Shown: positions 5,475 through 34,031 of the stretch, piece after piece
Numbering within the stretch: position 1 is the first letter of the stretch
Layout of the letters: each line of letters begins with the position of its first letter
NCBI GenBank assembly: GCA_965368975.1
Contig: CBDUPA010000006.1
Location: 192,001-256,000, forward strand
Source of the DNA: an uncultured bacterium
GTDB lineage: Bacteria; Acidobacteriota; Thermoanaerobaculia; Multivoradales; JAHZIX01
DNA: 64,000 bases
Reading direction: 5' to 3'
Made by a program: the position numbers and the translations under genes
The notes under the pieces: model-generated
Databases searched by the model: none
The model's input: only the letters and a program-made list of their open reading frames with translations
Told to the model about the DNA's origin: nothing

Positions 5475-5478
5475 GTCT

Positions 5479-5510: not shown

Positions 5511-5530
5511 GTTTCCACTGTGCCCTGCAG

Positions 5531-5549: not shown

Positions 5550-5638
5550 GATACCATCTTGTGCGTGGAGTCCTTCCGCGCCGGCCACGGTCCAGTGGCC
5601 TCTCCCTGATCCATGCTGAGACTGGAGGCTGAACGAGC

Positions 5639-8103: not shown

Positions 8104-8146
8104 CGCCCACCACGAGCGAGAGCCGCTCGGCGCGAGCGGTGCCGGC

Positions 8147-8395: not shown

Positions 8396-8448
8396 GCTCT
8401 CTCTCCGGTAATTCCAGGCTCCGATGATCTAGGTGAGGCTGCTCTGCC

Positions 8449-14093: not shown

Positions 14094-15116
14094 CTAGTGC
14101 GCGACGTGGCCCGCGTAATTCTGTTCACCGGCTTCGATCCGCACCGGCAGCTTGTTCTGGCGCGGTGGCAACGGGCAGGTGGCGTGGGGCGTGAAGGCGC
14201 ACGGCGGGTTGTAGGCGCGGTTGAAGTCGAGAATCACCTTGCCGTTCTCGTCCGGTGGATCGGCGTACAGGAAGCGGCCGCCGCCGTAGCTCTCGCGGCC
14301 GTTGGTCTTGTCTCCGAAGATGACGAACAACGGTTGACCCGCCTCGGCCACCGGATCCAGCAGGTAGGAGACGCCATCGATCTGGAACACCAGGGCTCCG
14401 GGGCAAGTCTCCTCGTAGGCGGTGCCCAGCACATTCGGCACGGTGATCTTCTTCGGCGGGTTGTACGGACGGTAGTTGGCCTCAATGCGCCAGGCCATGT
14501 CGGTGGGGAAGTGGTCCAGGCCCTGGAAGTCCGTCAACGCTTCCGCGGCGGTGTCCTTGAGGCGCAGGAAGCGCGCGTCGCCGCGCTGGATCAGGTAGAA
14601 GCTGAGATCGTCGCCCAGCTCGACCACCGTCTCGTTGCCGTCGGCGTCCGAGCGTAGCGTCAGCGTGGTCACCGGATCGTCGTTGTAGCGCAGACCGGCA
14701 TCCGGCTCCGCCTTCAGCACGACCTGGTCGGCGCTCACCTGCAGCACACCGGCACGGGCCGGTGCCTTGTCCGGGAACACCAATTCGTTGGTCTCGGCCG
14801 AGCCGAAGCGCAGACGCCCGCCGTTGACGCTCGCGTCGAGCGGGAACAGGCCGACCAGCGCCAGCCAGCCATTCTCGCTGCGCAGCCGCTGTTCGCGTTG
14901 CTCACGCCAGTCCGTCAGTTCGGCTAGATAAGCCTCGTCGAGGGTACCGTCATCAACGGTGTTTTCCTCAGCCGTGCTCGCGTCCGCGCCAGCACTCTGG
15001 GCTGACGCGGGGACCGCCACGCTCGCCAGCAGGGTTGCTGCTGCGAGCACGGCAGCTGCAAGGATGGCCCAGCTTCGGCCGAGAGCTTCAATGCGGAGAT
15101 CATCTGTGTTGCGCAT
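14094..15116 (-). CDS. DUF1684 domain-containing protein
   Basis: GWLALVGL, FGDKTNGRESYGGGRFL, LDFNRAYNPPCAFTPHATCPLPP..N.L...IEAGE. Confidence 0.88.
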   Translation of the reverse strand: MRNTDDLRIEALGRSWAILAAAVLAAATLLASVAVPASAQSAGADASTAEENTVDDGTLDEAYLAELTDWREQREQRLRSENGWLALVGLFPLDASVNGGRLRFGSAETNELVFPDKAPARAGVLQVSADQVVLKAEPDAGLRYNDDPVTTLTLRSDADGNETVVELGDDLSFYLIQRGDARFLRLKDTAAEALTDFQGLDHFPTDMAWRIEANYRPYNPPKKITVPNVLGTAYEETCPGALVFQIDGVSYLLDPVAEAGQPLFVIFGDKTNGRESYGGGRFLYADPPDENGKVILDFNRAYNPPCAFTPHATCPLPPRQNKLPVRIEAGEQNYAGHVAH

Positions 15117-15202
15117 GGCGACAAAGTAGCATTGCACCAGCCCCGCCGGCAACAGGATTTCTTGCACACCCAGATCCCACGAGCCTGTACGCGGGTGCAC
15201 GA

Positions 15203-16678: not shown

Positions 16679-18597
16679 TGTGCGGCATCGCTGGCATCGC
16701 AGGTCCCGCGGGTGTCGACGTGAGTCGACACCTGCCGGCCATGCGCGACGCCCTGGTGCACCGCGGGCCGGATGGTGAGGGTCTCGAGAGCTGGCCCGAA
16801 GATGGCGTGGCGCTCGGCCATCGACGCCTGTCGATCCTCGACCTCAGCGATGCCGGGGCACAGCCGATGTGCAACGAAGACGGCAGCGTCTGGGTGGTGT
16901 TCAACGGCGAGGTCTACAACTCGCCCGAGTTGCGCCGTGAGCTGCAGGAGCGCGGTCATCGCTTCGCCTCCCGCACGGACACCGAGGTGCTGGTGCACGG
17001 CTACGAGGAGTGGGCCTGTACGGGATCCGAGGCTGCCGGCGACCCGGGGATCGAGCGTTTCCTGAGTCGACTGACCGGCATGTTCGCCTTTGCGCTCTGG
17101 GATCGTCGCCGTCGCTGCCTGCTGCTGGTGCGCGACCGACTGGGCATCAAGCCGCTCTACTATGTCGTCCTGCCTGAATCGGGCCAGCAAGGCGAGCGAC
17201 TGCTCTTCGCCTCTGAGCTGAAGGCGCTGCTGGCGCATCCCGACGTGCCCCGCACCCTCGACCAGCGTGCCGTGCTCGACTACCTGGCCTATGGCTACGT
17301 GCCCGGTGACGGCTGCATCCTGTCCGGTCCGCGCAAGCTGCCGGCCGCGCACTACCTGCTATGGAACGCCGGAGATGTCGAGGTGCGGCGGTACTGGTCT
17401 TTGGCGGAGCCTGACTTCCCCGAGCCTGGCGCCGAAGAACTACGGGCGCTTCTGACGACCGCGGCGCGCGACCACCTGCTCAGCGACGTACCCCTCGGTT
17501 GCTTCCTCTCCGGGGGCGTCGACTCGACCTTGATCACTGCCCTGACCTCCGATGTGGCACCGCCGGACCTGCGCCTGCGCACGGTCAGCGTCGGTTTCGA
17601 CGCGGGCAGCAGCGAGCTACCGCAAGCCCGCCGGACCGCTGAGCGTCACGGCACCGAGCACCACGAGGAGCACGTCTCGGTCGACATGGCCGAAGACCTC
17701 TTCCCGCAGCTGGCCCGCACCTGGGACGAACCCCTGGCCGACGTCTCCACCCTGCCCACCCTGCGCCTGTGCCAAGCCGCCCGCCGCCACGTCAAAGTCG
17801 CGCTCTCCGGCGACGGTGGCGACGAGCTGTTCGCCGGCTACGGCTGGTACCGAGCGTCGCTGCGCACAGAGGCACGCTCGAACGGTGGCCTGGGTCGCGT
17901 TGCGACTCGCCTGCAGCCGCTGGTCGACCCACTGCGCGGCGTCCCCTACCTCGCCCGCCTCGGTGCCGTCCATCGTCACCTGGAACTGGATCCACTCCTT
18001 CGGCACCACTACCTGCGCGGTCTCTTCGACCCTTGGGAGCTGCAGCGCCTGGCCGGTTCCGAGCTGCGTGGAGAACTCGCGCACCACGACCCGCTATGGT
18101 TGTGGAAGCGCTGGTTCCGCCCCGAGCTGCCGCTGCTCACCGCGCTGCAGGTCCTCGACATCCACACCTACCTGGTCGACGACATCCTGGTGAAAGTCGA
18201 CCGCGCGTCCATGGCACATTCCCTGGAAGTCCGGCCACCGCTGCTCGATCACCGCGTGGCCGAGCTGGCCTTGCGCATTCCCGCCGGCCAGCAGCTGCAG
18301 CACGGTCAGGGCAAAGCCTTCCTGCGCCAGGCCGCCGGCGACCTGCTGCCGCGCGACGTCTTCGAGCGACCCAAGCGCGGCTTCAGTCCACCAGTCCGTC
18401 ACTGGTTCCGCAGTGGCTCTTCCGGAGTGGGCCTCTGGCACAAGACCCGTGACACCCTGCTGCACGGTCGCCTGGTCGGTGACGGCCTGCTCGATGCCGT
18501 TGCCGTCGAGCGCATGGTGCGCTACGGCACCGAACGCCGCTGGAGCAAGGTGTGGGCCCTCTTGACCCTGGAGCACTGGACCCGTGCCTGGCTCTGA
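16678..18597 (+). CDS. asnB: Asparagine synthase (glutamine-hydrolysing)-like amidotransferase, polysaccharide-associated
   Basis: MCGIAG Ntn start, HRGPDG, LGHRRLSILDL, FNGEVYN, LSGGVDS, SGDGGDELFAGY, DRASMAHSLEVR; TGATG overlap with the flippase stop. Confidence 0.92.
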   Translation: MCGIAGIAGPAGVDVSRHLPAMRDALVHRGPDGEGLESWPEDGVALGHRRLSILDLSDAGAQPMCNEDGSVWVVFNGEVYNSPELRRELQERGHRFASRTDTEVLVHGYEEWACTGSEAAGDPGIERFLSRLTGMFAFALWDRRRRCLLLVRDRLGIKPLYYVVLPESGQQGERLLFASELKALLAHPDVPRTLDQRAVLDYLAYGYVPGDGCILSGPRKLPAAHYLLWNAGDVEVRRYWSLAEPDFPEPGAEELRALLTTAARDHLLSDVPLGCFLSGGVDSTLITALTSDVAPPDLRLRTVSVGFDAGSSELPQARRTAERHGTEHHEEHVSVDMAEDLFPQLARTWDEPLADVSTLPTLRLCQAARRHVKVALSGDGGDELFAGYGWYRASLRTEARSNGGLGRVATRLQPLVDPLRGVPYLARLGAVHRHLELDPLLRHHYLRGLFDPWELQRLAGSELRGELAHHDPLWLWKRWFRPELPLLTALQVLDIHTYLVDDILVKVDRASMAHSLEVRPPLLDHRVAELALRIPAGQQLQHGQGKAFLRQAAGDLLPRDVFERPKRGFSPPVRHWFRSGSSGVGLWHKTRDTLLHGRLVGDGLLDAVAVERMVRYGTERRWSKVWALLTLEHWTRAWL

Positions 18598-19861
18598 ATA
18601 CGCTGGCTCTGACGTCGACCGCCCCTCCGGGCCGCGGATCCTGATGGTGCACAGCTCCAACCTGCGCGTGCCGGCGGCCAACACCGTGCAGGTCACGCGC
18701 ATGGGTGAAGCCTTCGTCCAGGCTGGTGCACAGGTCCGCCTGCTCTATCCAGCGTACGCGCAGGAAGGTGCGTTGGCCCCTGCCGAACTGGGAACTTATT
18801 ACGGCGTGCAAGAAGTCCTCGACGCCGGGGCCTTGCGCCTCGAACCCCTGCGCAGCCTCTTCACACAAGGCATGTTCCAACCGTCCTTCCCGTCGCGCCT
18901 GCTGCCCCTCTCCAAGGCCTTCGCCTTCCTCGTCGAGCTGCTGCGCCTGCGACTCTTCGCCACCTCGGACCTCCCCGACCTCATCTACACCCGCTGCTAC
19001 GCCGCCGCCTTCTTCCTACCCCGCCTGCGCTGCTTGCTCGGCCTGTCTCAGGCCGGGAAGCGCCCGCCGGTTGTTCTGGAAGTCCACGAGTTGCCTACAG
19101 ACCGCCAGCGCCTGCGGGCCATTCAGGGTGTCGATGCGCTGGTCGTGATCAGCCAAGCCCTGGCAGATGATCTCCGCCAGCGTCTCGACCCCCTCCCTCC
19201 GGTTCTCGTTGCTCCCGACGGAGTGCCGAGCAGCTGGCTCGAAGAGATTCCGCGAGACACGGCCCGCCAACAGATCGCCGAGACGCTGCAGCAGCAAAGC
19301 GTGCGCCTAGATTCTCGCCTGCCCCTGGCCGTGATCACCGGCAGCCTCCCCGCCGGTGCCGTCGACGTGCTTTTCCGCACCGCACGGGCACTGCGCGGCA
19401 AGGCCGAGATCCTCGCCGTCGGTGCGCCGCGTCGAGGTAGCGTCGAAGATCTGCGGGTCGCGGCACAGCGGGACGGTCTGTCGAATCTGCATTTCCTTGG
19501 CCCCGTGCCGCCGTCACAGGTGCGGACGAACCAGGCCGCCGCGGATGTGTTGTTGGCGGCCTACACCGGCGAACTCAGCTGGGCCGCTCATACGTCACCG
19601 CTCAAGCTCTTCGAATACATGGCCGCTGGACGGCCGATGGTGGTGTCGGATCTGCCGGTGCTGCGCGAGGTGCTGGAGCCGGATGGGAATGCGGTGTTGG
19701 TGCCGCTGGGGGAGGAGGGGGGATTGGCGGCTGGTGTCGAGAGGGTGTTGGGGGAGCGGGGATTGGGAGAGCGGGTGGCGTCGCGGGCGTTGAGGGATGT
19801 CGAGGAGTGGACTTGGGAGCGGCGGGCGGAGCGGGTGTTGGGGTTTGTTGATGGCGTTTAG
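18584..19861 (+). CDS. Glycosyltransferase family 4
   Basis: ANTVQV..M..AF, SPLKLFEYMAAGRPMVVSDLP..REVL, TWERRA. Confidence 0.88.
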   Translation: MPGSEYAGSDVDRPSGPRILMVHSSNLRVPAANTVQVTRMGEAFVQAGAQVRLLYPAYAQEGALAPAELGTYYGVQEVLDAGALRLEPLRSLFTQGMFQPSFPSRLLPLSKAFAFLVELLRLRLFATSDLPDLIYTRCYAAAFFLPRLRCLLGLSQAGKRPPVVLEVHELPTDRQRLRAIQGVDALVVISQALADDLRQRLDPLPPVLVAPDGVPSSWLEEIPRDTARQQIAETLQQQSVRLDSRLPLAVITGSLPAGAVDVLFRTARALRGKAEILAVGAPRRGSVEDLRVAAQRDGLSNLHFLGPVPPSQVRTNQAAADVLLAAYTGELSWAAHTSPLKLFEYMAAGRPMVVSDLPVLREVLEPDGNAVLVPLGEEGGLAAGVERVLGERGLGERVASRALRDVEEWTWERRAERVLGFVDGV

Positions 19862-19863
19862 AC

Positions 19864-22560
19864 TCAGCCGCTCGGATCTCCCGGCACCTGCAACTCCGGA
19901 GCTATGACCCCGTCCGGATGCACCACGGGCTCCTCGCTGGATTCTCCAGCCGGGTCGGGGGCGCCGGTGCTGGGCACGGGGAGCAAGGGCCCCTCGGCGA
20001 TCCGGTGCAGCAGCCAGTAGGCGAGGTCCAGGTTCTGGCGCTGGCGGTCGGTGGGGTCGCCGGTGAAACGGCTGCCCAGTTCGCGCTTGCTGAGCGTCAG
20101 GGAGTCGGTGAAGACACCCACGACACCGCTGCCGAAGCGGATCTCGCTGTACACGGGGATGCCGTTGCCGTCGGCGAGTAGGGTGTGCCCACCGTGGACG
20201 GCGAGTACCGGGCGCGATACGACGAAGCTGGTCTCGTCCTGCGCCACGTCTGCATCTTCGGAGGGTGCATCTTCGGCAGCAGCGTCTTCGGCAGGCGCAT
20301 CTTCGGACTCTGCAGCTTCAGACTCTGCTGCCTCGCTGTGCTCCAAGAGGTTCACCTCGACGCGCTCCAGCCTGACCTCGACGCCCAGGCCGAAGACGGC
20401 TAGCAGCTGCTCAGTGGCGGTGCCTCGGCTCAGCAGGCCGTCGAGGATCAGCAGACCGCCGCCGCCGCGCACGAAGGCTTGCAGCTGGGCTGATTGGCTC
20501 GGCGTTGGGGTGCGTGTCGGGTGTGCCAGCACCAGCATGTCGCGTCCACCAAGCCGATCGTCTCCCTGGCTGAGTGCCGCCGACAAGTCTTCGCCGACCC
20601 GCGGCAGGTAGTCGAGGCGCTGGGCGGCGACCAGCAGGCTGTCCAGGGCGACCAGGTCGTCGTCGCTGGCGAGGGTCAGGACGTGCGGCAAGTAGATGTC
20701 GGAGAGTTCGGTGTCGAAGACGACCTGCCGCGGTGGCGTGACGCCGTCGCGGTACGGGGGCAGGTCGAGGGTGGGGCCGGCGAGAGCCAGGACCACAGTA
20801 CCGGTGGCGAGGCCCAGCGCCAGGAAGCTGGCGGTTGCCAGCGTTGCACGACCTCGGTCGATCAGGCCGAGAGTCGCGACAGCGGCGAGCAGCAACAGGG
20901 TTGCCAGGGTGGGCAGGTGCCGGCTCGTCCACGCTGGCCGGCGGGCCAAGTACTCGACCGTCGCCACGGCGACTTCTCGGCGGCCGGGGAAGTAGAGAGA
21001 GAAGTTCGACAGCGGCGTGCTGTCGCTGAAGGCGGCGACGCGACCGGCGCCGTGGGCCAACGTCGCGTGCTGGGCGAAGAAGCCGAAGTCGTCCGGAGGG
21101 TCCAGGTGCAGGTTGCCGAAGAAGCCGGGGCGTGAGTAGTCCGCGGCTTCGGCGCCCAGGCCGTAGCCGAGCATCGGGATGCGGGCGCGCAGGGGCACGC
21201 GTAGGGTGCACGAGGTTTCGAATTCGAAGGCGCCAACGACGCTGGCGATCGGGTGGGGTAGCCAGCGGGGTGCGCGCCACTGCGACTGGGCTTCGCTCAC
21301 CTGAGCGAAGGTGTCGTCGGTGGCGAAGGAGAGACCGAAGCGCTGGGCCACGGGGTTGAGGTAGGTGGTCATGCCGAACAGGTTGGTGTGATCCCCGATC
21401 AGGAACAGCCCGCCGCCGCCGCGCACAAAGGCCTCGACGGCCTCGATCTCCGACGCCGCGAAGGGCTCGGTCGGGGTCTTGAGGATCAGCACGTCGGTGT
21501 CGGCGAGCGCTGCCGCGGTCAACGGGGCCTGCTGCCAGCGGTTCACCTCGTAGTGCTGTTCCAGCAAGCGGTAGAAAGAGCTGTAGGAATAGGAGATGAG
21601 CTGGCCGTAGGTTTCGGTGTCGAAGGGGGTGTCGGTAGGTTCCCAGGTGCCGTGACTGTCGTCGAAGAGCACGCGGACGTTGCCGTCCGGCCCCCCGAGG
21701 CGGTCACCGACAGGCACCCAACCGAGCGCTAGCACCCAGGCGATTCCCAGCACGGCGGCGGCGGCGCGGCGTCCCCGCGGGAACGCTGGTTCCGTTGGGC
21801 TCGTGGGCTGGAAGCGGCAGCGCGCGGGCAGCAGGCAGGCGGCGGGGAGCAGGGTGAGCAGGGTCCACCAGGGGCTGGTGACGAGTCCTTGGTCGGGCAG
21901 GTCGACCCAAGCCGCAGTGATCAGCAGTAGGCGGAGAAAGGCAGCGCCGAGCAGCGCCGCGGCCCAGCGTGCCAGGAACCTCCCTGGTCGGCGCAGCGGA
22001 ACCAGTAGCGCCACGCCGACACCGGCGGCCAGGGCCAGCAGCAGCGGAAGAGCGGCCAGCCGGCTCAGGGACGGCAGCAGCTCGAACACCGTGCCGCCGC
22101 TGTGGACGACCACCAAGCCCTGCTCGGCGACGGCGTTCAGACCCAGCAAGCGCAGCGCGCCGGCCAGCGTCGAGGCCAGGCCGGGCACTTCGCGCCAGCG
22201 TGCCAGCAGGCTGACCAGAGGCGTCAGTGCGAGCAGCTGCGCGAGTGCTATCGCCAGCACCAAGCCACCGCGATCGGCCAGGCGCTGCCGGCCGGTGGGC
22301 ACGGAGAGGCCCGAGGGTACGGAGAAGCCCGAGGGTACAGCCGCCGGCCTGCGAGCCCAGGCAGCCAGGGCGAGTCCAAGCAGTACTAGCAGGCTGCCGG
22401 TGAGGTACGCGGGAGTCTCGAGCTGGCCGCTGATCAGTTGCCAGCCGCAGGCGGCCAGCAGGGCGCCGCAGAGTAGCTGCCGTGGCGCCAGGGCCGGTAC
22501 CACGGCTGCAGGTGCTTCGATTTCGGGGACCTGCGGCGACGGAGCGGGGAGCGGGCTCAT
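19864..22560 (-). CDS. Polytopic membrane protein with two DUF4350/GldG-like (GATase1-like fold) domains; exosortase-like TM region lacking the catalytic Cys
   Basis: ATG 22560 overlaps the upstream TGA. TM-rich N-terminus, then VLFDDSHG, DVLILKTP...FV.GGGGLFLIGDHTN, G.GRVAAFSDS, and a second similar domain. Confidence 0.65.
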   Translation of the reverse strand: MSPLPAPSPQVPEIEAPAAVVPALAPRQLLCGALLAACGWQLISGQLETPAYLTGSLLVLLGLALAAWARRPAAVPSGFSVPSGLSVPTGRQRLADRGGLVLAIALAQLLALTPLVSLLARWREVPGLASTLAGALRLLGLNAVAEQGLVVVHSGGTVFELLPSLSRLAALPLLLALAAGVGVALLVPLRRPGRFLARWAAALLGAAFLRLLLITAAWVDLPDQGLVTSPWWTLLTLLPAACLLPARCRFQPTSPTEPAFPRGRRAAAAVLGIAWVLALGWVPVGDRLGGPDGNVRVLFDDSHGTWEPTDTPFDTETYGQLISYSYSSFYRLLEQHYEVNRWQQAPLTAAALADTDVLILKTPTEPFAASEIEAVEAFVRGGGGLFLIGDHTNLFGMTTYLNPVAQRFGLSFATDDTFAQVSEAQSQWRAPRWLPHPIASVVGAFEFETSCTLRVPLRARIPMLGYGLGAEAADYSRPGFFGNLHLDPPDDFGFFAQHATLAHGAGRVAAFSDSTPLSNFSLYFPGRREVAVATVEYLARRPAWTSRHLPTLATLLLLAAVATLGLIDRGRATLATASFLALGLATGTVVLALAGPTLDLPPYRDGVTPPRQVVFDTELSDIYLPHVLTLASDDDLVALDSLLVAAQRLDYLPRVGEDLSAALSQGDDRLGGRDMLVLAHPTRTPTPSQSAQLQAFVRGGGGLLILDGLLSRGTATEQLLAVFGLGVEVRLERVEVNLLEHSEAAESEAAESEDAPAEDAAAEDAPSEDADVAQDETSFVVSRPVLAVHGGHTLLADGNGIPVYSEIRFGSGVVGVFTDSLTLSKRELGSRFTGDPTDRQRQNLDLAYWLLHRIAEGPLLPVPSTGAPDPAGESSEEPVVHPDGVIAPELQVPGDPSG

Positions 22561-25295
22561 CTCGGCTCCTCGGCTGGCGCGGTGTCTTCGGCTGGCACTG
22601 GTTCTTCGGCTGGCGCAGTGTCTTCGGCTGACGCAGTCGCGGCGAGTGGCGGCGTGTCGACCACGGAGCGGCCGACATCGAGCAGCCGATCGAGTAGCTC
22701 GACGTTGGCGCGCTGGAACTCGAACTCGCCTTCGAAGTTCTCGTCCTCGAAGAAGCGACCGTCGCCGAAAACCAGGCAGCGGCCGGCTTCGAAGGGGCGC
22801 GACTCGACGATCAGGGCATCGCCTTCGAGGGCCACATGCACGGTGTGCGGCACACTGCCGCCGGCTTCGACCGGCCAGGCGTCGACGAAGCGTAGAGTCT
22901 GTGCTGAAGGGTTCAGCTCCACTTCCGCCGGGCCCAGCGGATAGTTGCCGATGCGTAGGTCGCAGGCTTCCAGCAGCCGGTTGGCCGCCGGGCGGCCGTG
23001 CGCACCCGCGGCGACCACCAGCGTGCCGCCGCGTTGCAGCAGGCGGGTCACGGCGCGCAGATAGGCGGCGGAGGGTGGTCGTGCCGGTGCCACGTGCAGC
23101 ACCAGCGACGCCTGGTCCAGTCGTTCGGGGTCCTGACGGTCCAGGCTCAGCGGCAGGTAGCCGGCGCGCATCAGCATGGGGGAGATGCCGCCCATGGCAC
23201 CTTCCTGGAAGAACTCCCGGGGCAGGCGATCGGCCAAGCCGCGCTGGATCCAGGCCAAGCGGTCGGGGGCGGGTACCTGCGGCCGTGCTACCGGCAGCCA
23301 GGTGGTGAGGGCGGCTGCCAACACCAGGCTCAGGGCGCTTGTCGTGGTCCAGCCCCAGGGCGGCGGAGCGGCGCGCCAGAGCACCAGTGCACCGAGTACC
23401 AGTGCGCCGACCGCCAGGATTGTGGCCAGCAGCGTCCACGGCCACTCGGCGGCGCCGGGGCGCGACAGGTAGCGGACGGTGCGCTCGACGAAGGGGTAGG
23501 CGTCCGGCAGGGACAGGGGCTGCAGGCTGGTGGTGTCGCCGAAGGCCACCACGGCGCCCTGGCCGACGCGGCCGCCGGCCACGAGCACGACGTCACCGAG
23601 GCGCTCGCCGCGCTGGTAGCGGTAGTCGCCCAGGAAGGCGCCTTGACCGTCGTTGGAGCGGTTGCCGAAGTCTCCGAAGCCGTAGCGGCCGACCACCAGT
23701 GGTTGCAGTGCGGAACCGCTGAGAGTCAGGGAAGCTCCGGTGCCGATCTGGGCTTCGTGATAGCTCGCCATGCCGGCGGTGATCGGATGCGGCAGGAAGT
23801 CGAGGCAGTGACGCCAGTGGCGCCGTAGGGCGAAGGCGGAGTCGAACTCGATGCGCGCGGACACCGGGGCCAGCAGCTGGTTCAAGGGGCCCATGATGCC
23901 GAAGATGTCGGTGTGGTCACCGAGCGCCAGCAGGCCGCCGCCGCCGCGCACCCACTGCCACAGGGCTGCCAGTTCGCCGTCGCCGTACATCTGCTGCGGG
24001 TTGATCACCACCAAAACCTGGACGCCCTGCAGCGCTTCGGCGGTCAGCTCACCGGTCAGCTCACGAGTGATGTAGTTGCTGCTTTCCAGGTAGCGGCGCA
24101 CGGCGCCGAACATGCCGACCTGCACCAGGCCGTAGCGTCCCACTGCCGGCGAGGTGAAGTCGAGGTGTCCGAGGTTGTGGAAGGCGACGACCGGGGTCCC
24201 GGTGCTCCTGGCTCCGCTCGTCTCACCGGTACCTTCAGCGGCACCGCCCGCGTCAGGTGCAGGGGGCAAGGATGCTGGGCGTAGCAGCAGCAGGCAGGCC
24301 AACACGAGAGCCGCGCCGCCGGCCCAGAGGCGCCAGGGTGAGTGGGCAGGAGCCGGCGTCGATGCCTGCGAGGCGCTGGGCACCTCGCTGGGCACCTGAC
24401 TGGGCACCTGACTGAGCAGACGTCCGCCGAACCACAGGAACAACCCCCACGGTAGCAACAGCGTCAAGGGCGCGAGCTGTCCCGGCGCCACGTTCCACGG
24501 ACGGTGCGGTTCCGGGATCACCAACAAGGTCCGTACGCCATCGGCGAGTAGGTGTTCCAGCCACGGCTGGAGCGCGAGGTAGACGGTCAAGCCCAGCGGC
24601 ACGGCCAGCAGCAAGGAGAGGCTCGCGCGGCGTGATTCTGCGGTGGCCGGTTCAGGCCGAGGCAGAAAGGGCCAACGCAGGCAGCCCAGGGCTAGCAGTA
24701 GGAAGGGCAATGCGAGCCAGAGGCCGGCCACGGTCGGCCCCAGGCGTAGGTCTTCACCGGCCAGCAGGGCGGCCGCGGCCGAGAGGCCGGAAGCGACGGC
24801 GTCCAAGGCGAGCCAGAGGCCAGCGAAGTGCCGGCTGAGGACCCAGATTCCCGCGCTCAGCAGGAGTGCCCGGACGAGGTGGAGCCGCCACGGCACGGGC
24901 GGTGCCGGTGGAGAGGACGATTCTAGGAAAGGGGTTTGGGTGGCCCACAGGATCAAGCCCAAGCACACGCCGGCCACGCGCGCGGTCTCACCGCTGTCGC
25001 TTGCAAGGGTCTCCAGGAGGAGCGGCAAGATGGGTAGCAGTACGGCGAGCCAGCGCCACAGCCGAGTGTGGCCGGAATGGGCGCGGCGTTCCAGGTCGAG
25101 GCCCCACATATCGAAGGCCAGGGGCACCAAGGCCAGCACGAGGAGCAGCCGGCCGGCCGCCGGGGTCAGTGGGCCGAAGCTACCGAAGGCCAGCAACAAC
25201 GCCAGGGTGGAACAGGCCAACGCGGTGCGCGGGGAAGAACCTCCGGCATCCGTCTGGACGCCGGAGGTCCGCGAGTTGTCAGCGGACGTGGTCAA
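22557..25295 (-). CDS. Polytopic membrane protein with two DUF4350/GldG-like domains (paralog of 19864..22560)
   Basis: About 9 TM segments, then VLVVINP...WVRGGGGLLALGDHTD, G.GAVVAFGDT, a TM hairpin, and a second domain (GRCLVFGD..F...N). Confidence 0.65.
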   Translation of the reverse strand: MTTSADNSRTSGVQTDAGGSSPRTALACSTLALLLAFGSFGPLTPAAGRLLLVLALVPLAFDMWGLDLERRAHSGHTRLWRWLAVLLPILPLLLETLASDSGETARVAGVCLGLILWATQTPFLESSSPPAPPVPWRLHLVRALLLSAGIWVLSRHFAGLWLALDAVASGLSAAAALLAGEDLRLGPTVAGLWLALPFLLLALGCLRWPFLPRPEPATAESRRASLSLLLAVPLGLTVYLALQPWLEHLLADGVRTLLVIPEPHRPWNVAPGQLAPLTLLLPWGLFLWFGGRLLSQVPSQVPSEVPSASQASTPAPAHSPWRLWAGGAALVLACLLLLRPASLPPAPDAGGAAEGTGETSGARSTGTPVVAFHNLGHLDFTSPAVGRYGLVQVGMFGAVRRYLESSNYITRELTGELTAEALQGVQVLVVINPQQMYGDGELAALWQWVRGGGGLLALGDHTDIFGIMGPLNQLLAPVSARIEFDSAFALRRHWRHCLDFLPHPITAGMASYHEAQIGTGASLTLSGSALQPLVVGRYGFGDFGNRSNDGQGAFLGDYRYQRGERLGDVVLVAGGRVGQGAVVAFGDTTSLQPLSLPDAYPFVERTVRYLSRPGAAEWPWTLLATILAVGALVLGALVLWRAAPPPWGWTTTSALSLVLAAALTTWLPVARPQVPAPDRLAWIQRGLADRLPREFFQEGAMGGISPMLMRAGYLPLSLDRQDPERLDQASLVLHVAPARPPSAAYLRAVTRLLQRGGTLVVAAGAHGRPAANRLLEACDLRIGNYPLGPAEVELNPSAQTLRFVDAWPVEAGGSVPHTVHVALEGDALIVESRPFEAGRCLVFGDGRFFEDENFEGEFEFQRANVELLDRLLDVGRSVVDTPPLAATASAEDTAPAEEPVPAEDTAPAEEPR

Positions 25296-25316
25296 GAAGC
25301 GCTACCGTCGAGCGTC

Positions 25317-26162
25317 TCAGGTGTTGCCGTCGACGTTGACCACGATCTGCCGGCCGGCTTCGTCCTCGACCACCACGATGTAACTGCCACCGGCCGGTGC
25401 CGCGGGGTCGAGAATACGCATCATGCGCTCGTTCCGTGCCTCGCCGCCGGCGATCAGGTTTTGAGACCCATCGGCTGCCAGGCGGTACAGGCGGTAGCTC
25501 TGTGCCTGCATGCCCGTGGTGATCCAGGTCACTTCAGTACCGCCGAAAGTCGGAGTGGCGTCGAGGCCGACGACGCGGCCCTGACCATGGTGCGCAGGGG
25601 TACAAGCCGCCGCTGCCGCCGCGCTGTCGCCCGGGCAGCTGCTGCACAGGGAGCCGGCGCAGGCGCTCTGGCCGCACAGGGAGCCGGCACAGGCGCTCTG
25701 CGAGCACAGCGAACCGGCACAACCGCTGACGCCACAGGCGCTGCCGCCGCACAGGCTGCCACCGCAGGCACTGCCGGCGCAGATGCTTCCGGCGCAAGCA
25801 CTGCCACCACATACGCTACCGGGACAGGCGGAGCCGGCGCAGGCACTGCCACCGCAGCCAGAACCGCCGCAGGCGGATGCGGTGCAACCACTGCCGATGC
25901 AAGCGCTGCCGATACAGGCGCTGACGCCCTCACTGACGAACAGAATGGCTTCCTGGACGGGTTCAGCACTCTCTTCGGGAGCGAGCAGGGGCTGGTTGAC
26001 GTCCAGGGTCATCTCAGCCAGCTTGTCCGCCAGCTGCCGATCGAACAGCGGTGAATCCGCGACCGACGTCTCCGCCGGAACACCGCGGGTGGCTTCCACC
26101 GACACCATGGCCCAGGTGGCGGCGACGAGGATCAGGCTCAGGATTACGAGTTTTTGTCTCAT
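25317..26162 (-). CDS. Secreted protein with Cys-every-fifth pentapeptide repeats and a C-terminal Fn3/Ig-like domain
   Basis: AAGGAG RBS before ATG 26162, signal peptide, 19 consecutive S-x-C-x-x units, C-terminal VTW......YRLYR....D......Y.V.VED. Confidence 0.8.
   Translation of the reverse strand: MRQKLVILSLILVAATWAMVSVEATRGVPAETSVADSPLFDRQLADKLAEMTLDVNQPLLAPEESAEPVQEAILFVSEGVSACIGSACIGSGCTASACGGSGCGGSACAGSACPGSVCGGSACAGSICAGSACGGSLCGGSACGVSGCAGSLCSQSACAGSLCGQSACAGSLCSSCPGDSAAAAAACTPAHHGQGRVVGLDATPTFGGTEVTWITTGMQAQSYRLYRLAADGSQNLIAGGEARNERMMRILDPAAPAGGSYIVVVEDEAGRQIVVNVDGNT
25638..25922 (-). repeat. 15-bp (pentapeptide) repeat array, 19 units SxCxx
   Basis: SACIG SACIG SGCTA SACGG ... 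SACAG SLCSS, read from the translation. Confidence 0.95.
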
Positions 26163-26182
26163 GGTTCTTTCTCCTTGTCCGA

Positions 26183-27067
26183 TCATCCGCCGTGACCGTT
26201 GGCCCTGATGCGCTCGTGGACCATGTCCGTCAGGTCCCTGTGCGCCTTGGGTAAGGCAAGTTCGAAGACATCGTCTTCGAGCTGAACGCCGAATTGCGTC
26301 CGCATATCCTGCTCGACGTAGAGATACGCGGGTTCACGCTGATCGCCCTCGGGGAGAGCTTCCTGGACCTCCATCTGGAGCTTGACCAGCAGCAGTTCGC
26401 GTGCGTCGATCCAGAACTGGCAGTTGCGGATCAAGCTGCCGTCGTTGGCCCGCACGTCTTCCAGGGACTGCAAGACGTACACGGGTTCGCCGTCGAGAGT
26501 GGCCGCGTAGGCACGGAACCTGGCGTTGAGGAAGACGTCATCGAACTCCAGGTGCCGGAGCGGACTACGGTACTTCGCCGGCAGGGCTTCGGGCAGGGCG
26601 TGGTGGCGAATCACAAAGGACTCGACGACCGGTTGCCGGCCCTCGCCCTGCTTGTCGAGGAAGCCGCTCTCGTGCAGCACTTTGGTTTCCTGACCAGAAT
26701 GTACCCAGACGAAGCGGCGGCTATCCGGTAGATCGAGATCGGCGTTGCCACGGAAGGCTTCCTGGACGGTGTCCGACTCGACCGCCTCGACGCGGGCCTG
26801 GTCACCTTTGAGATGGGCTACGTAATCACCGTCGGTGGTGACATCCGCCTGGTCCAGGCTGCTCACGGTCACCGTCTGATCGATGTCGACCTGCCGCGGA
26901 TCGTCGAAGAAGCTTTGGTAACGCTCGTTCACCGCCTGCATGATGCGGTGCGCGTCCAACCCTTCGTCGGCCTGCGCCACGGGGACGCCGAGCGCTCCGA
27001 ACAGCAATGTGGCCATGGCGAGGATGGTGGCGAAGGTGCCGATCCTCGAGACTCTGGCTGTCTGCAT
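26183..27067 (-). CDS. Secreted LolA/RseB-like fold protein
   Basis: AAGGAGG RBS, signal peptide (..AQA), LDGEPVYVL, FWIDARELLLVKL, EDDVFELALP, a pattern typical of LolA-like carriers. Confidence 0.55.
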   Translation of the reverse strand: MQTARVSRIGTFATILAMATLLFGALGVPVAQADEGLDAHRIMQAVNERYQSFFDDPRQVDIDQTVTVSSLDQADVTTDGDYVAHLKGDQARVEAVESDTVQEAFRGNADLDLPDSRRFVWVHSGQETKVLHESGFLDKQGEGRQPVVESFVIRHHALPEALPAKYRSPLRHLEFDDVFLNARFRAYAATLDGEPVYVLQSLEDVRANDGSLIRNCQFWIDARELLLVKLQMEVQEALPEGDQREPAYLYVEQDMRTQFGVQLEDDVFELALPKAHRDLTDMVHERIRANGHGG

Positions 27068-27264
27068 GTCCTACCTCCTTATCCTGGCACGATGCACCGA
27101 TCACGGGCTGCCCCGAATGGGCAACCGTTCCCGGTCCACTGTGAGCGGGATGTTGAACTCGCGGGTTCTCGCGAGTAGCTACCGTGCTTGAAGGGATGTG
27201 AAATTAAGGGGAAGTTCACGTTGAGGCTACCATGCAGCCGCGAAGTGCGCAAGTGAGTTCGGAC

Positions 27265-28461
27265 TCAGAACTCCCGCCCCTGCCGCAGCCCCCGGCGCTC
27301 CGCAGCCCGCACCATCCGCCGCTTGTGGGCGCTCCAGCCGTAGCCGGCGAACAGCCCCAAGACGCCGACGCAGAAGCCGACGAAGAGGGTAAAGGTAAAC
27401 CCGTCGACGCCTCCAGCCCCACTGCGGGTCACCGCACTGAGCCGCCGCCGTGCGCGCTCCTCGGCTGACGGGCCATCTTGCAGTTCTTCGCGGATCGTCC
27501 GTTCGCTGTCGTCACGGCGGTCGACGAAGGTGCGGTCTGGACGATCGAGACCGCCGTTGTTCCAGGCGGAAATGGGGAGCTTCTCCTGCAAAGCGGGGTC
27601 GTCGGCGCGAATCACCTTGACTGGACGCAGGCCGCGTTCGGGCCAGGGGTTGAAGCCGAGGGAGCCGCAGTCGACCCAGGCTTGACCGCAGCCGTCGGGA
27701 TTGCCGGTGCCGTCGACATGCAGCAAACGCGTATTGCTGGGACCTGGGATCCATGCGGATCCGTCCGGCGGCTGGAAAGACGCGAGGTCACCGGGAAAGC
27801 GGGTGACGGCGTTGCTCAGGTGGCCCTCCATGTCGCCAGGAGTCGAACTGAGCCAGGAGACGAACCAGGCTTCGTAGCCGAGACCTTGCAGCAGGGTCGT
27901 CAGCAGGACGGCGGCATCGTCGCAGTCGCCTTGTTCGTCGACCAGGAATTCGATGCCGAACTTGGGGTACTCGGTCCAGCCGGTGGTGGTGTCGAAACTG
28001 TAGTTGATGCCCTGCACCAGGCCGTGGACGAAGGCGACGCGCGAGGCTTGGGAGGTGACGCCGGCGGCCTCGAAGTGACGGGCGAGGGCGACGGTGAGCG
28101 GGCGCAGGTCGCTGGCAGTGACGTCGAGAACGCGGCGGATGGAGTCGTGGGGATCGTTGCGGCGCAGGCTGTAGGCGTCGACGCCGACGGCGAGCTCGGC
28201 CCAGGCGAGTTCGCGCTCGGTGCACGGAACGCGGTCGGTGGGGCAGAAGGGCCAGGCGCGGTAGATGCGGCCGGAGTCGGGTGCGGGCAAGTCGTTGCCA
28301 TGCGAGCGACCGTCGTCATGCAGTCGTACCCAGGGTAGAGCGTCCGCGGCGAGCAGTGGCTCGGTGACGCTCGGCAGGACGAGGTTCGCACCTAGGAGAA
28401 AGCAGGCGAGCGGCAGGGGATGGGTGCGCGGCCCGTGGCGAGTGACATGGCTGTGCGGCAT
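27265..28461 (-). CDS. Membrane-anchored transglutaminase-like (Cys-His-Asp) protein
   Basis: Signal-like N-terminus, FVHGLVQGINY, EFLVDEQGDCDDAAVL, GHL, HVDGT; C-terminal TM plus Arg-rich tail. Confidence 0.75.
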   Translation of the reverse strand: MPHSHVTRHGPRTHPLPLACFLLGANLVLPSVTEPLLAADALPWVRLHDDGRSHGNDLPAPDSGRIYRAWPFCPTDRVPCTERELAWAELAVGVDAYSLRRNDPHDSIRRVLDVTASDLRPLTVALARHFEAAGVTSQASRVAFVHGLVQGINYSFDTTTGWTEYPKFGIEFLVDEQGDCDDAAVLLTTLLQGLGYEAWFVSWLSSTPGDMEGHLSNAVTRFPGDLASFQPPDGSAWIPGPSNTRLLHVDGTGNPDGCGQAWVDCGSLGFNPWPERGLRPVKVIRADDPALQEKLPISAWNNGGLDRPDRTFVDRRDDSERTIREELQDGPSAEERARRRLSAVTRSGAGGVDGFTFTLFVGFCVGVLGLFAGYGWSAHKRRMVRAAERRGLRQGREF

Positions 28462-29618
28462 CAGAACTTCCTTCGTGCACGCTCGGCGCGCCGTGTCTGC
28501 TGGCGTGCCAGGCGTTGCTGTCGAGTGCGCCAGCTGCTCCAGCCGAGCAGGCCGAGCAACGCCAGGAGCACGGCCGAGATGACGTAGAGGGTGCCGTCTT
28601 CCTGCTGGCCTGGCAGGCACTCGAGGCCGAGGGCGCGCGCCTGGGCGCAGATGTCGGGCTGGGTGGAGGTGGGGCCGGCTTCGGTGTCGGTATCGGTGTC
28701 ACGGGACGGCCGTGGGGTGGTCGGCGTCCGCGGATCGGTTGGGGTCGTGGATGGCAGACTGCCGCCGGGTTGCCAACCGTCGGCGAGCATTTCGTCCCAG
28801 GTCCAGGTGGTGATCGGTTCCTCGAGCTCGCCGGGCCAGACGGCGCGCACCAGCGGGACCAGGTAGCCGCCGTCGACGTTGCGCGTCCAGTCGGCGCCGC
28901 TGCTTCCGCTGCTGCCGCCGGCATCTTCGCGCGACAGCCAGACGCCGAAGACTTCCGGTGTCGGTGCGTCTGAAGTCGTGGTCGAGCCGGTGCCGCCGGC
29001 TGGGTAGCGTGCCAGGTGGACGGGGATGCCCAGGGTCTGTAGGGCCTGCACAGCAGTGAAGGCGGTGGACAGGGTGTCCGCGTGGACGGCGTCGGCGAGC
29101 ACTTCCCAGCCTTGCCACAGCCGGGAGTAGCGGCTCGGGGGGCCGGCGCGGTGGGCCGCGACGGGGCGCAGCGTGGCGACCAGGCACGTAGCGGTGAACA
29201 GAGGGTCGTCCTCGGCTAGCAAGCCGCGCTGGCGTAGCGCCGCGACGAGCACGCGCAAGTGCGGTTCGTTGGCCGCGGCGACCTGGGCCGGCGTCTGTTC
29301 ACGGCCAGCCTGATCGAGCCAGGCGTCCGGGCCGTGCACCACCATCAGGTAGGGATCCTGCTTGGGTGGCAGGGTGCGCACCCACTGCCGGTGCCAGCGG
29401 CCCTTCTGGTCGAAATTACGGTTCTGGACGACGCCCGGTAGCAAGTCGATGGTCAGGTCTTGGGCGAAGGCGGGGAAGGCGACGAAGAGCATCGCCATCA
29501 AATGGAGAAGGATCCCCTTCTGTGTAGGGGCGGCCCCATGTGGCCGCCCTGCGGCGCAGCCGCATCCGGATCCAGAGGGCGGCCACATGGGGCCGCCCCT
29601 ACAACGGAGGGCGGACAT
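28461..29618 (-). CDS. Membrane-anchored secreted protein, probably a degenerate transglutaminase-like paralog
   Basis: Signal peptide ending AFA-Q; EVLADAVHADTLSTAF..ALQTLG aligns by eye to the neighbour's catalytic segment; Pro/Thr linker; C-terminal TM plus Arg-rich tail. Confidence 0.6.
   Translation of the reverse strand: MSALRCRGGPMWPPSGSGCGCAAGRPHGAAPTQKGILLHLMAMLFVAFPAFAQDLTIDLLPGVVQNRNFDQKGRWHRQWVRTLPPKQDPYLMVVHGPDAWLDQAGREQTPAQVAAANEPHLRVLVAALRQRGLLAEDDPLFTATCLVATLRPVAAHRAGPPSRYSRLWQGWEVLADAVHADTLSTAFTAVQALQTLGIPVHLARYPAGGTGSTTTSDAPTPEVFGVWLSREDAGGSSGSSGADWTRNVDGGYLVPLVRAVWPGELEEPITTWTWDEMLADGWQPGGSLPSTTPTDPRTPTTPRPSRDTDTDTEAGPTSTQPDICAQARALGLECLPGQQEDGTLYVISAVLLALLGLLGWSSWRTRQQRLARQQTRRAERARRKF
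29523..29603. repeat. GTAG-family REP doublet (REPIN-like), 28-bp perfect inverted arms
   Basis: tgtaggggcggccccatgtggccgccct (29523-29550) and its exact reverse complement (29576-29603), separated by a 25-bp spacer. Confidence 0.85.
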
Positions 29619-29627
29619 CACCACCCT

Positions 29628-34008: not shown

Positions 34009-34031
34009 GGGCTAACCTTTCCTAACATGGA

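Follow-up and report, generated by a model that had tools for sequence, protein, structure and literature searches.

What is the role of a secreted protein in which every fifth residue is a cysteine, when the radical SAM enzyme expected beside such a protein is missing? This question is raised by a four-gene operon in a 64,000-nucleotide stretch of DNA, here called the window (positions 192,001 to 256,000 of contig C6), from an uncultured bacterium of the phylum Acidobacteriota. A first-pass annotation described a LolA-like secreted protein, a Cys-repeat protein and two DUF4350-like membrane proteins, and every part that it observed in this gene set holds. It also placed the operon apart from the CefA/CefB systems, suggested that the membrane pair might export, modify or anchor the ladder protein, and offered metal binding or a surface layer as possible roles, points which fare differently below.

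The operon and its cysteine ladder

The four genes lie on the minus strand and are tightly coupled, in the order LolA-fold protein, Cys-repeat protein, MemA and MemB. Gaps between genes are 20 and 21 nt, and the TGA of memA and the ATG of memB overlap as ATGA, where the start of MemB was placed; a 1193-aa open reading frame for MemB was rejected as an over-extension. The ATG of the Cys-repeat gene at position 26162 is preceded at 8 nt by AAGGAG, a Shine-Dalgarno sequence.

The Cys-repeat protein (P0001 of the gene caller, 281 aa, 25317..26162) begins with a predicted Sec signal peptide, residues 1 to 26 (26085..26162), to which both the hydrophobic N-terminus and a helix predicted over residues 2 to 26 point, with a putative cleavage site at VEA/TR. 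This is followed by a conserved pre-repeat motif, DSPLFDRQLADKLAEMT (26007..26057), predicted by AlphaFold2 to form an amphipathic helix at residues 38 to 52 and common to the long, short, TC-variant and RHS-fused forms of the protein. The ladder itself consists of exactly 19 consecutive S-x-C-x-x units spanning residues 81 to 175 (25638..25922), with both the Ser and the Cys invariant in all 19. Shuffling the protein 20,000 times never produced as many as four consecutive units, and since the repeat DNA has diverged (65-87% matches) the array is not a slippage artefact. Residues 68 to 192 are left unstructured by AlphaFold2 (pLDDT 31-40) and predicted to be disordered; a pentapeptide-repeat beta-helix of the A(D/N)LXX type is still compatible with this region, and no Pfam family is matched by the protein at E<=0.1.

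The chain ends in a C-terminal Fn3/Ig-like domain (25329..25577), modelled as a seven-strand beta-sandwich with pLDDT above 90 over residues 196 to 278. The best Foldseek match is FN3tt 7jgu, at E 5.7e-4 with rmsd 3.7 over 87 columns and a TM of 0.59 relative to the target. Phage lambda tail-tip FN3 domains come next, and the Fn3-like protein 3mpc is also matched; a Pfam search of the domain gave no match. The signal peptide, the count of 19 unbroken units and the Fn3/Ig-like domain are thus as they had been read from the letters.

A radical SAM enzyme is absent from the window

Cys-every-fifth peptides are the subject of two curated models, CefA (NF038108) and its radical SAM partner CefB (NF038107), for which a literature search found no paper. 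The likeness to CefA lies in the spacing of the cysteines, one in every five residues, and in the small residues that separate them, and the CefA model aligns to the ladder. It scores only 17.1 bits on the window protein (E 0.0039), below its cut-off of 30. Relatives of the Cys-repeat protein straddle that cut-off at 17 to 35 bits, with P0010 (32.6 bits) and P0029 (34.9 bits) passing. The CefA model describes a short RiPP precursor of 65 positions with no extra domains, whereas the window protein has 281 residues with a Sec signal, a conserved helix before the repeat and an Fn3 domain. The constant partners of the window protein are, moreover, two membrane proteins that lie outside the CefA/CefB definition.

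None of the 35 PF04055 matches in the genome falls within C6:192001-256000, in agreement with the first-pass annotation, which had reported no radical SAM gene in the 64 kb. The search for CefB-like enzymes that it proposed for the rest of the genome likewise found none at the cut-off, the best score being 142 bits against 600, on another contig. In five other carrier genomes, some of which are incomplete MAGs, CefB scores at most 49 bits, with no match at E<=0.001 in two of the five. Canonical CefA/CefB membership is therefore rejected, as CefA reaches 17.1 of 30 bits, CefB at best 142 of 600, and no CefB gene is adjacent.

The wider picture of a system free of radical SAM enzymes stands for the window but needs qualifying elsewhere. 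The genome has a TIGR04463-like gene on contig C13 (203 bits against a cut-off of 525; 142 bits with the CefB model), which has no Cys-rich neighbour and sits among its own double-glycine-leader peptide genes, and another on C18 (CefB model 123 bits). A distant, low-GC locus, L027, has two radical SAM/SPASM genes for which TIGR04463 is the best or near-best match (229 and 221 bits; CefB 213 and 225 bits). It also has a 330-nt repeat, 90% identical, upstream of memA and of the first radical SAM gene, and these genes appear to be co-regulated with the cluster. An arrangement of the CrpC type, in which a TIGR04463 radical SAM gene stands beside a Cys-rich gene, is missing from the window, and sub-threshold relatives adjoin only in L027.

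It is conceivable that the Cys-repeat protein is a RiPP-like substrate, whose thioether cross-links would be put in before Sec export by a radical SAM/SPASM enzyme from another part of the genome, leaving the membrane pair as exporter only. There is a precedent in Methanococcus voltae, where, according to the available text of the report, the TIGR04463 enzyme CrpC installs ranthionine links on the large Cys-rich protein CrpA (PMC13692751). CrpA resembles the Cys-repeat proteins in being a Cys-repeat substrate of protein size whose N-terminal part is conserved and leader-like; its repeat is of 17 residues with C-x-x-Q/D, however, and the available text mentions neither a membrane pair nor a LolA-like gene (PMC13692751). 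While the L027 genes with their shared repeat and the genes on C13 and C18 are consistent with such processing, all of the radical SAM scores fall far under the curated cut-offs of 525 (TIGR04463) and 600 bits (CefB), the C13 gene has peptide genes of its own, CefB is at or below 49 bits in the five other carrier genomes (incomplete MAGs among them), and the window operon is without any radical SAM gene. We regard processing in trans as improbable.

The ladder gene travels with the membrane pair

A distinct system was proposed on the basis of the window alone, and the test suggested for it, whether SxCxx repeat proteins co-occur with the membrane pair elsewhere, comes out in its favour. With the search run from both genes, 12 of 13 informative loci have the Cys-ladder gene next to the membrane pair; the loci come from Myxococcota, Alphaproteobacteria, Lentisphaerae, metagenomes and the phylum of the window itself. 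When the search began with the Cys-repeat gene, MemA/MemB-type genes are adjacent in nine of ten informative loci (the window, L010-L013, L016 and L025-L028), the one miss being L028, a ladder gene without the pair. Starting from MemB, carriers make up 5 of 401 genomes of the phylum, and in each of the three other carriers examined there memB adjoins a Cys-rich gene that bears the SPLF motif, in one case a T-C variant. Five further Cys-repeat/MemB pairs (P0013/P0082, P0016/P0090, P0019/P0098, P0039/P0091 and P0029/P0163) were also counted for the association, as the two members of each pair agree in the length of their longest contig. A full-length relative is found in 0 of 40 relatives, a patchy distribution. 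The core of a poly-Cys protein and two large membrane proteins thus recurs in several bacterial phyla without the expected radical SAM enzyme, and together with the sub-threshold CefA and CefB scores this upholds the idea of a separate system. A full-text literature search found no paper describing the gene association.

Gene order or adjacency is maintained in four or more phyla, with protein identities of 24-45%, which exclude one recent transfer as the source of the loci. The 13 loci inspected are a small part of the MemB family, which counts 982 representative clusters at E<=1e-30, and this leaves some room for the four genes being neighbours by chance and not functioning together. That reading is contradicted by the synteny, held at such divergence and accompanied by translational coupling, and is very improbable.

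Two large membrane proteins of the GldG/DUF4350 kind

MemA (912 aa, 22557..25295) and MemB (898 aa, 19864..22560) are polytopic and had been taken for paralogous DUF4350-like proteins, an assignment that the family searches bear out. MemB passes the Pfam cut-offs for PF14258 (57.4/30.4 bits), PF09822 (40.6/34.7) and PF23355 (30.3/27.2), and MemA that for PF14258 (34.7/30.4), with PF09822 at 27.1 bits lying below its cut-off of 34.7. The two are 29% identical over 231 residues (E 7e-20), and both keep a GGG(L)...GDHT motif, GGGLLALGDHTD in MemA (23907..23942) and GGGLFLIGDHTN in MemB (21382..21417). MemA carries two DUF4350/GIFT-like domains and has orthologues in 11 other loci. MemB begins with about seven N-terminal TM helices, and two GIFT-like domains follow, separated by a TM hairpin. 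Its two large domains are net acidic and set between short arginine-rich loops, and are predicted to face the periplasm.

MemB thus belongs to the same domain family as GldG/ABC_transp_aux (PF09822) and DUF4350 (PF14258) proteins. For the related arCOG01314, the predicted role given in the available text is "secretion or membrane remodelling" (PMC5898192). MemA and MemB differ from these systems in that each protein carries two copies of the domain, joined to a membrane domain of 7-10 helices, and in forming a paralogous pair without MoxR, DUF58 or DUF4129. Unlike GldAFG-type ABC transporters, the window has no ABC genes; among its 26 ORFs scanned with Pfam, there is no ABC-2 permease, no ABC ATPase and no outer-membrane component. 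The matching ABC-2 permease and GldA/DrrA-like ATPase occur in L027 only, directly 3' of memB. The N-terminal membrane domains match no Pfam family, and an exosortase/archaeosortase identity (PF09721) was rejected for them, as comparison with 12 exosortase-family sequences from relatives gave hhalign probabilities of 0.9% for MemB and 0.07% for MemA, with no conserved Cys.

An alignment of MemB across phyla has 74 invariant columns, and in six phyla-spanning sequences the invariant polar residues cluster in the first GIFT-like domain, in the motifs DDSHG.WE, KTPT, GGGL...GDHT, DDTF, HPI and GRV.AFSDST.FSNFS. This clustering, the invariance of Ser and Cys in all 19 units, and the retention of the pair also in L011, where an RHS protein bears the cargo, would fit MemA and MemB being periplasmic enzymes that modify the ladder, a maturation after export that replaces radical SAM chemistry and yields the modified protein as its product. 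Yet neither protein matches a known catalytic family in Pfam or NCBIfam, and the nearest solved relatives of the GIFT-like domain, the IFT52 GIFT domain (E 5.6e-5) and Glyco_hydro_42M, are non-catalytic modules. On balance, enzymatic modification of this kind is unlikely.

A LolA-fold partner for the long form

The gene at 26183..27067 encodes a predicted periplasmic protein of 294 aa with an N-terminal hydrophobic signal-like segment. By sequence it belongs to no curated LolA-type family, with no Pfam or NCBIfam family at E<=0.1 and nothing in the PDB below E 0.2 by sequence profile. Its AlphaFold2 model (mean pLDDT 76.8) is predicted to form the open beta-barrel with lid of the LolA superfamily, and it is matched by Foldseek at probability 1.00 to LolA, RseB, LprG and VioE. 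VIA-align gives Z 14.1 against 4mxt (rmsd 3.3 over 176 residues), 12.4 against LolA 8v1k and 12.2 for a third match, the three at rmsd 3.2-3.6 over 159-176 residues. The LolA-like label of the first-pass annotation is therefore borne out at the level of fold. The likeness to LolA, LolB, RseB and LprG (Z 10-14 over about 170 residues) has its limits: the operon protein is about 100 residues longer than LolA and is encoded beside a non-lipoprotein client. Its gene is present in all seven loci with the long, Fn3-bearing form of the Cys-repeat protein and in none of the six with the short or RHS form, so that it goes only with the former.

The same ladder is carried by RHS proteins

In RHS/YD-repeat polymorphic toxin systems, a variable C-terminal cargo follows the Rhs-associated core and a cognate gene lies downstream; the cargo is usually, though not necessarily, a toxin. 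At least five RHS proteins (L011, P0029, P0032, P0035 and P0045) have the pre-repeat motif and the Cys ladder as their C-terminal cargo. Behind the Rhs-associated core, which TIGR03696 matches at 39-61 bits (cut-off 32.5), come the SPLF motif, a ..NP....DPTGE motif and then the ladder. The stand-alone forms can be aligned with this region through their own pre-repeat part. In L011, the RHS gene is followed by a small membrane ORF, memA and memB with 4-nt overlaps. These relatives, L011 and four database proteins, resemble RHS toxin systems in the position of the cargo and in having partner genes directly downstream, and the same module also occurs in stand-alone form with a signal peptide, as in the window. 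They differ in that a disordered, low-complexity Cys ladder of putative toxicity takes the place of an enzyme domain as cargo, and in that the downstream partners are two conserved membrane proteins of 800-900 aa.

The placement on RHS proteins points to a secreted effector or cargo rather than to metal binding or a surface layer. These earlier suggestions find no support in the loci, where no metal-handling gene is conserved. More broadly, the ladder may serve outside the cytoplasm as a thiol-rich material, soaking up metals or oxidants as a sponge or forming a surface or matrix protein cross-linked by disulfides; MemA/MemB would export or anchor it, and it would be aimed at no competitor. 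About 20 evenly spaced thiols in a disordered and, by prediction, Sec-exported chain would suit such a role. So would the Myxococcaceae locus L010, where memB overlaps at its stop with a TlpA-like thioredoxin gene and the neighbours include DsbD and an AhpC/TSA protein, as expected of cysteines needing reduction or isomerisation. Such thioredoxin/DsbD neighbours occur in only one of 12 loci, however, a sponge leaves the RHS placement unexplained, and radical SAM cross-linking in L027 would use up the thiols. This leaves thiol material as a minority possibility.

A proposed mobile secreted effector and its handling

The operon is probably an undescribed secreted-effector system. Our preferred reading, which we hold tentatively at a probability of about 0.4, is that of a mobile secreted poly-Cys effector that is handled in the envelope by a dedicated membrane pair and is independent of radical SAM enzymes in this genome. 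The four genes form one operon, which would encode a horizontally mobile envelope module. Sec would export the Cys-repeat protein, whose mature part would consist of the short conserved helix (SPLF..L), a disordered (G-S-x-C-x)19 ladder and the Fn3-like domain. This mature part is the stand-alone version of the module that some bacteria bear as RHS C-terminal cargo, and for that reason its most likely role is that of a secreted effector resembling bacteriocins or polymorphic toxins in type. MemA and MemB may form a hetero-oligomer with their GldG/GIFT-like domains facing the periplasm, where they would receive the Cys-repeat protein and pass it outward, shield the membrane of the producer, or both, combining export with self-protection. 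The LolA-fold protein would be a periplasmic carrier needed only by the Fn3-bearing long form. The cysteines would undergo no dedicated radical SAM processing in this genome and would be present as free thiols or disulfides.

Against this reading stand the size of MemA and MemB (800-900 aa), the 74 invariant columns of MemB and the GGG(L)...GDHT motif kept by both; judged by their sequences, the two look more like an enzyme or machine than a small, fast-evolving immunity protein. The lack of an outer-membrane component or ABC ATPase among the 26 scanned ORFs and the unpaired ladder gene of L028 also count against it. A bolder and quite unlikely variant is that MemA/MemB is a new kind of periplasmic maturation-and-export machine that cross-links the Ser/Cys ladder in an ordered way after Sec without radical SAM chemistry. 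The ladder would then be a polymorphic effector cargo of a new class that travels free, with a LolA-fold carrier or in RHS shells.

MemB-type proteins are named from bacteria that are in culture and harmless, namely Methylobacterium nonmethylotrophicum, Polyangium sp. and Sagittula salina, and a Cys-repeat protein from the first of these, so the question can be tested at the bench. The association provides a candidate client for a large family of membrane proteins that carry no annotation beyond "DUF4350" or "GldG family", and it indicates that Cys-every-fifth proteins need not be radical SAM RiPPs. With its motif tied to RHS cargo, the poly-Cys ladder would be a secreted effector of a new kind and of unusual chemistry.

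Operon Organization and Genomic Surroundings

The system is made up of four co-directional genes on the minus strand at 19864-27067. A gene for a 294-aa LolA-fold protein (26183-27067, TGA stop) comes first; 20 bases on, the gene of the 281-aa Cys-repeat protein (25317-26162) begins with an ATG at 26162 that has an AAGGAG 8 nt ahead of it. After a further gap of 21 nt comes memA (22557-25295, 912 aa), whose TGA is overlapped by the ATG of memB (19864-22560, 898 aa) as ATGA, a layout that bears out the four-gene operon proposed in the first-pass annotation. A memB ORF of 1193 aa extends too far; the called gene product, P0079, is 898 residues long. A consensus scan of 19000-28000 returned no sigma-70-like promoters or intrinsic terminators, which is neutral for or against a single transcript. 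Among sequencing runs, no RNA run with this sequence is listed; four DNA runs, all of one study, contain about 0.1 of the sampled words.

Two minus-strand ORFs just upstream of the operon (27265-28620 and 28461-29624) each carry a C-terminal membrane anchor, and one of them has a weak transglutaminase-core match (20.5 bits, under the cut-off); neither is conserved beside the operon in other loci. Genes for a Wzx-type flippase, an asparagine synthase, and a group-1 glycosyltransferase (15035-19861, plus strand) converge on the operon's 3' end, and none of them stands beside the system elsewhere. By tblastn, the transglutaminase-like gene at 27265-28620 and the downstream polysaccharide genes had no match in the other loci. 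Further out, a protein of 1256 aa that carries a Tubulin_2 domain at its N-terminus (PF13809, E 4.8e-58; 29628-33398, minus strand) heads a run of large co-directional ORFs without a Pfam match (33427-45341, minus strand), inside which is a 1078-aa protein with an HSP70-like segment. A 2100-aa bacterial alpha-2-macroglobulin with MG2, A2M, and bMG10 domains is encoded at 48044-54346 (minus strand), with QueG after it at 54414-55670.

The Cys-Repeat Protein and its Ladder

The ladder of the Cys-repeat protein runs for exactly 19 S-x-C-x-x units without a break (residues 81-175; window positions 25638-25922), as had been read from the sequence at the outset. Ser and Cys are invariant in 19/19 units, while Ala prevails at position 2 and Gly at position 5. 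Not one of 20000 shuffles of the protein reached even four consecutive units, and the underlying DNA repeat is diverged, with 65-87% matches. A genome-wide six-frame scan of the 7.1-Mb genome found no second Cys-every-fifth ORF, and Pfam assigned the protein to no family.

Structurally, the AlphaFold2 model, built from a 20-sequence alignment, begins with an N-terminal helix (residues 2-26) that coincides with a hydrophobic signal-like segment, followed by a second helix at residues 38-52. Residues 68-192 are without structure (pLDDT 31-40), so that a beta-helix reading of the pentads finds nothing over the repeat in the model, and residues 196-278 form a confident beta-sandwich (pLDDT above 90) that Foldseek matches to FN3 domains (7jgu, E 5.7e-4; phage lambda tail-tip protein; 3mpc). 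The signal peptide and the C-terminal Fn3/Ig-like domain noted earlier both hold up. Taken with simple hydrophobicity and charge counts, used here for signal-peptide cleavage and membrane topology, the modelling shows a predicted Sec-type N-terminus and a ladder predicted to be disordered.

Conservation of the Gene Association

Database searching at E<=0.001 gives 76 relatives of the Cys-repeat protein. Those of full length come from Myxococcaceae, Methylobacterium, Xanthobacteraceae, and Planctomycetes, and all combine the ladder and the Fn3 domain with a signal peptide and an SPL(F/Y)..(R/Q)L helix. When genome and metagenome contigs were scanned, 28 loci emerged, 18 of which were set aside (L014, L015, L017-L024, and L030-L037) as plain tandem repeats of the GGSAC/AGSAC type, read in arbitrary frames from high-GC DNA and lacking a signal peptide or the conserved pre-repeat (SPLF) region. 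The basis for this was the 11 best-scoring hmmsearch frames, from 11 loci, and the ORFs of L014, L018, L020, L036, and L037; for L019, L021, and L022 the decision was made solely from weak hmmsearch scores (23-49 bits). L029 stays in the family and is uninformative on the membrane pair, as its contig ends.

MemA- and MemB-type genes adjoin the Cys-repeat gene in 9/10 loci (the window, L010-L013, L016, and L025-L028), the sole miss being L028, where a ladder gene stands without the pair. In the reverse direction, a MemB profile places the family in 5/401 genomes of the window's phylum, including the unpublished G194. Three carriers besides the window, G194 not among them, were examined for neighbours, and in 3/3 a secreted Cys-rich SPLF gene adjoins memB, bringing the informative loci to 13 in total. 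The Cys-rich gene of one carrier, G294, is a variant in which irregularly spaced T-C repeats replace S-x-C and the SPLF motif is kept. At this locus (L068, contig C22 of a 31%-GC genome of the window's phylum; 88-1473 and 6779-7255), a sigma-54-type enhancer-binding protein gene precedes memA-memB. A further five Cys-repeat/MemB protein pairs were matched on equal size of the longest source contig, and in one of these the NCBI locus tags are four positions apart. The Cys-repeat and MemB proteins of the cultured non-pathogen Methylobacterium nonmethylotrophicum stem from contigs of equal length and so appear to lie on a single contig. Co-occurrence of ladder and membrane pair elsewhere had been set beforehand as the refutation test for the association, and it was found in both directions of search. 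Set beside these counts, adjacency of the four genes by chance is extremely improbable.

A full-length Cys-repeat or LolA-like gene is present in 0/40 close relatives of the window's genome, one of which has a 24-bit match to the repeats only. Because the system is rare and patchy and reaches several phyla at 24-45% identity, its distribution is as expected of a mobile accessory unit.

At L010 (Myxococcaceae; 6605-8455 and 16461-19964), two HtrA-like protease genes flank the system, a TlpA-like thioredoxin gene overlaps the memB stop, and an AhpC/TSA protein and DsbD also flank. The TlpA-like and DsbD neighbours are the main support for a thiol, metal, or matrix role of the ladder, but they occur in L010 alone, and we regard such a role as unlikely.

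The Ladder as RHS Cargo

A Lentisphaerae locus, L011, encodes an RHS protein of 1959 aa with the ladder and a beta domain at its end; a 102-aa membrane ORF, memA, and memB come next, overlapping by 4 nt. Four database proteins (P0029, P0032, P0035, and P0045) are arranged in the same way, with the Rhs-associated core (TIGR03696, 39-61 bits) first, then SPLF..R..V..GMD..GY.Y.G.NP....DPTGE and ..WNP.S.S..SGC, and then the ladder. The pre-repeat region of the stand-alone proteins aligns with this stretch of the RHS form, including a degenerate DP..T remnant. What lies past the DPxG motif of an RHS protein is released as its cargo, in most cases a toxin. These arrangements show a Cys-ladder module that also serves as predicted RHS cargo.

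The LolA-Fold Protein

The LolA-fold protein has no match in Pfam or NCBIfam, and a profile search of PDB sequences with its family gave nothing below E 0.2. Its model (pLDDT 76.8) is matched by Foldseek with probability 1.00 to LolA, RseB, LprG, and VioE, and with VIA-align 4mxt reaches Z 14.1 (176 residues at rmsd 3.3) and Francisella LolA reaches Z 12.4, in agreement with the LolA-like neighbour described initially. The gene is found in 7/7 loci with the Fn3-bearing long form (the window, the P0002/P0078 contig, L010, L012, L013, L016, and L029) and in 0/6 loci with short or RHS-fused forms; across these 13 loci it accompanies the long form only. A predicted complex of LolA-fold residues 36-294 with Cys-repeat residues 165-281 scored 0.02 against a mark of 0.32. 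The presence of a LolA-fold neighbour draws attention to a possible likeness of the ladder units, and of the first V-S-A-C, to the lipobox consensus.

The MemA/MemB Membrane Pair

Both MemA and MemB exceed the Pfam cut-off for DUF4350, and MemB is also above those of ABC_transp_aux (GldG type) and the IFT52 GIFT domain. Aligned over 231 residues, the two reach 29% identity (E 7e-20), and they have a motif in common (GGGLLALGDHTD / GGGLFLIGDHTN), which confirms the earlier view of a paralogous polytopic pair. In each, an N-terminal polytopic domain is followed by two GIFT-like domains with a transmembrane hairpin between them. As the short loops of MemB are arginine-rich without acidic residues and its two large domains are net acidic, both large domains are probably periplasmic. 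Relatedness between the N-terminal domains of MemA and MemB is not detectable (probability 10.7%). Pfam searches with the isolated membrane domains at E<=10 gave nothing meaningful, and an atlas search with MemB residues 1-292 gave no usable match. An exosortase-like origin of these domains was rejected at hhalign probabilities of 0.9% and 0.07%. Invariant polar residues in the MemB alignment (A3) would fit periplasmic enzymes that modify the ladder protein, a reading we think quite unlikely.

At E<=1e-30 the MemB family takes in 982 representative clusters, and at E<=1e-10 it grows to 2356. At least 267 of its clusters at 90% identity are annotated merely as DUF4350 or GldG family, with proteins so named in Polyangium sp., Methylobacterium nonmethylotrophicum, and Sagittula salina.

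Radical SAM Enzymes and the CefA/CefB Comparison

None of the genome's 35 PF04055 matches falls in the window, so the reported lack of a radical SAM gene in these 64 kb stands. The Cys-repeat protein scores 17.1 bits against the NCBIfam model of CefA, the Cys-every-fifth RiPP precursor (cut-off 30). As for a cognate CefB-like maturase acting in trans, a possibility raised at the outset, no CefB reaches the cut-off in the genome, and the best matches to the CefB model are genes on contigs C13 (142 bits) and C18 (123 bits). The C13 gene, the better of the two, has TIGR04463 as its best family (203 bits vs a cut-off of 525) and sits among double-glycine-leader peptide genes without cysteines. Five small ORFs with such leaders, of the pattern ..EL(S/T)E.(D/E)(L/M)E.(V/L)AGG or ..ESL(S/T).E..QM.AGG, lie at about 7750-8000 and 15685-16304 of this region (L071; C13, 99000-117000), surrounding the TIGR04463-like gene and large ABC-type ORFs. 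It is a RiPP-like locus in its own right.

Across five other carrier genomes the CefB model scores at most 49 bits, the level of control genomes such as E. coli, with no match at all in two; as several are MAGs, absence is probable rather than proven. Since no CefB reaches the cut-off here and the other carriers stay at or below 49 bits, a dedicated radical SAM partner is not a constant of the system, and maturation of the ladder by a distant radical SAM enzyme is very unlikely. The operon is not a member of CefA/CefB. The closest characterised chemistry, as far as the available text of PMC13692751 goes, is that of CrpC, a TIGR04463 enzyme shown there to cross-link a protein-sized Cys-rich substrate.

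The low-GC locus L027 shows that a radical SAM partner can be recruited. Its order is memA, a short Cys-repeat gene, memB, an ABC-2 permease, a GldA/DrrA-like ATPase, and two radical SAM/SPASM genes, whose best models are TIGR04463, Clo7bot, and CefB (213-233 bits; cut-offs 525-600). No separate small Cys-rich ORF is found near the radical SAM genes. Ahead of memA, and again ahead of the first radical SAM gene, stands a 330-nt direct repeat with 90% identity (318-641 and 9046-9371), which may be a regulatory region common to both or a gene start that was duplicated. Near the ladder gene of L028 are a 113-aa fragment similar to the N-terminal part of CefB-type maturases (3978-4319) and an 804-aa ORF that contains part of a radical SAM region (5378-7792); the locus may be a decayed RiPP cluster.

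Proposed Function

A full-text search for 'Cys-every-fifth' returned no papers, and none of the passages on DUF4350 that were consulted describes the operon's gene association. Nearest among them is a complex built on DUF4350, for secretion or membrane remodelling, that was predicted for archaea in 2015 (PMC5898192). The reading we prefer, at a probability of roughly 40%, is of a secreted effector with the ladder as its active part, handled by a MemA/MemB complex and, in its long form, escorted by the LolA-fold protein. The Cys-repeat protein would be exported by Sec, and its pre-repeat helix would then dock on the periplasmic domains of MemA/MemB. This complex may move the protein outward, stop its action on the producer, or both, and the LolA-fold protein would escort the long form. 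Judged from its sequences, the operon draws on known kinds of parts, a Cys-ladder protein, RHS-type cargo, and GldG-type membrane components, brought together in a putative function.
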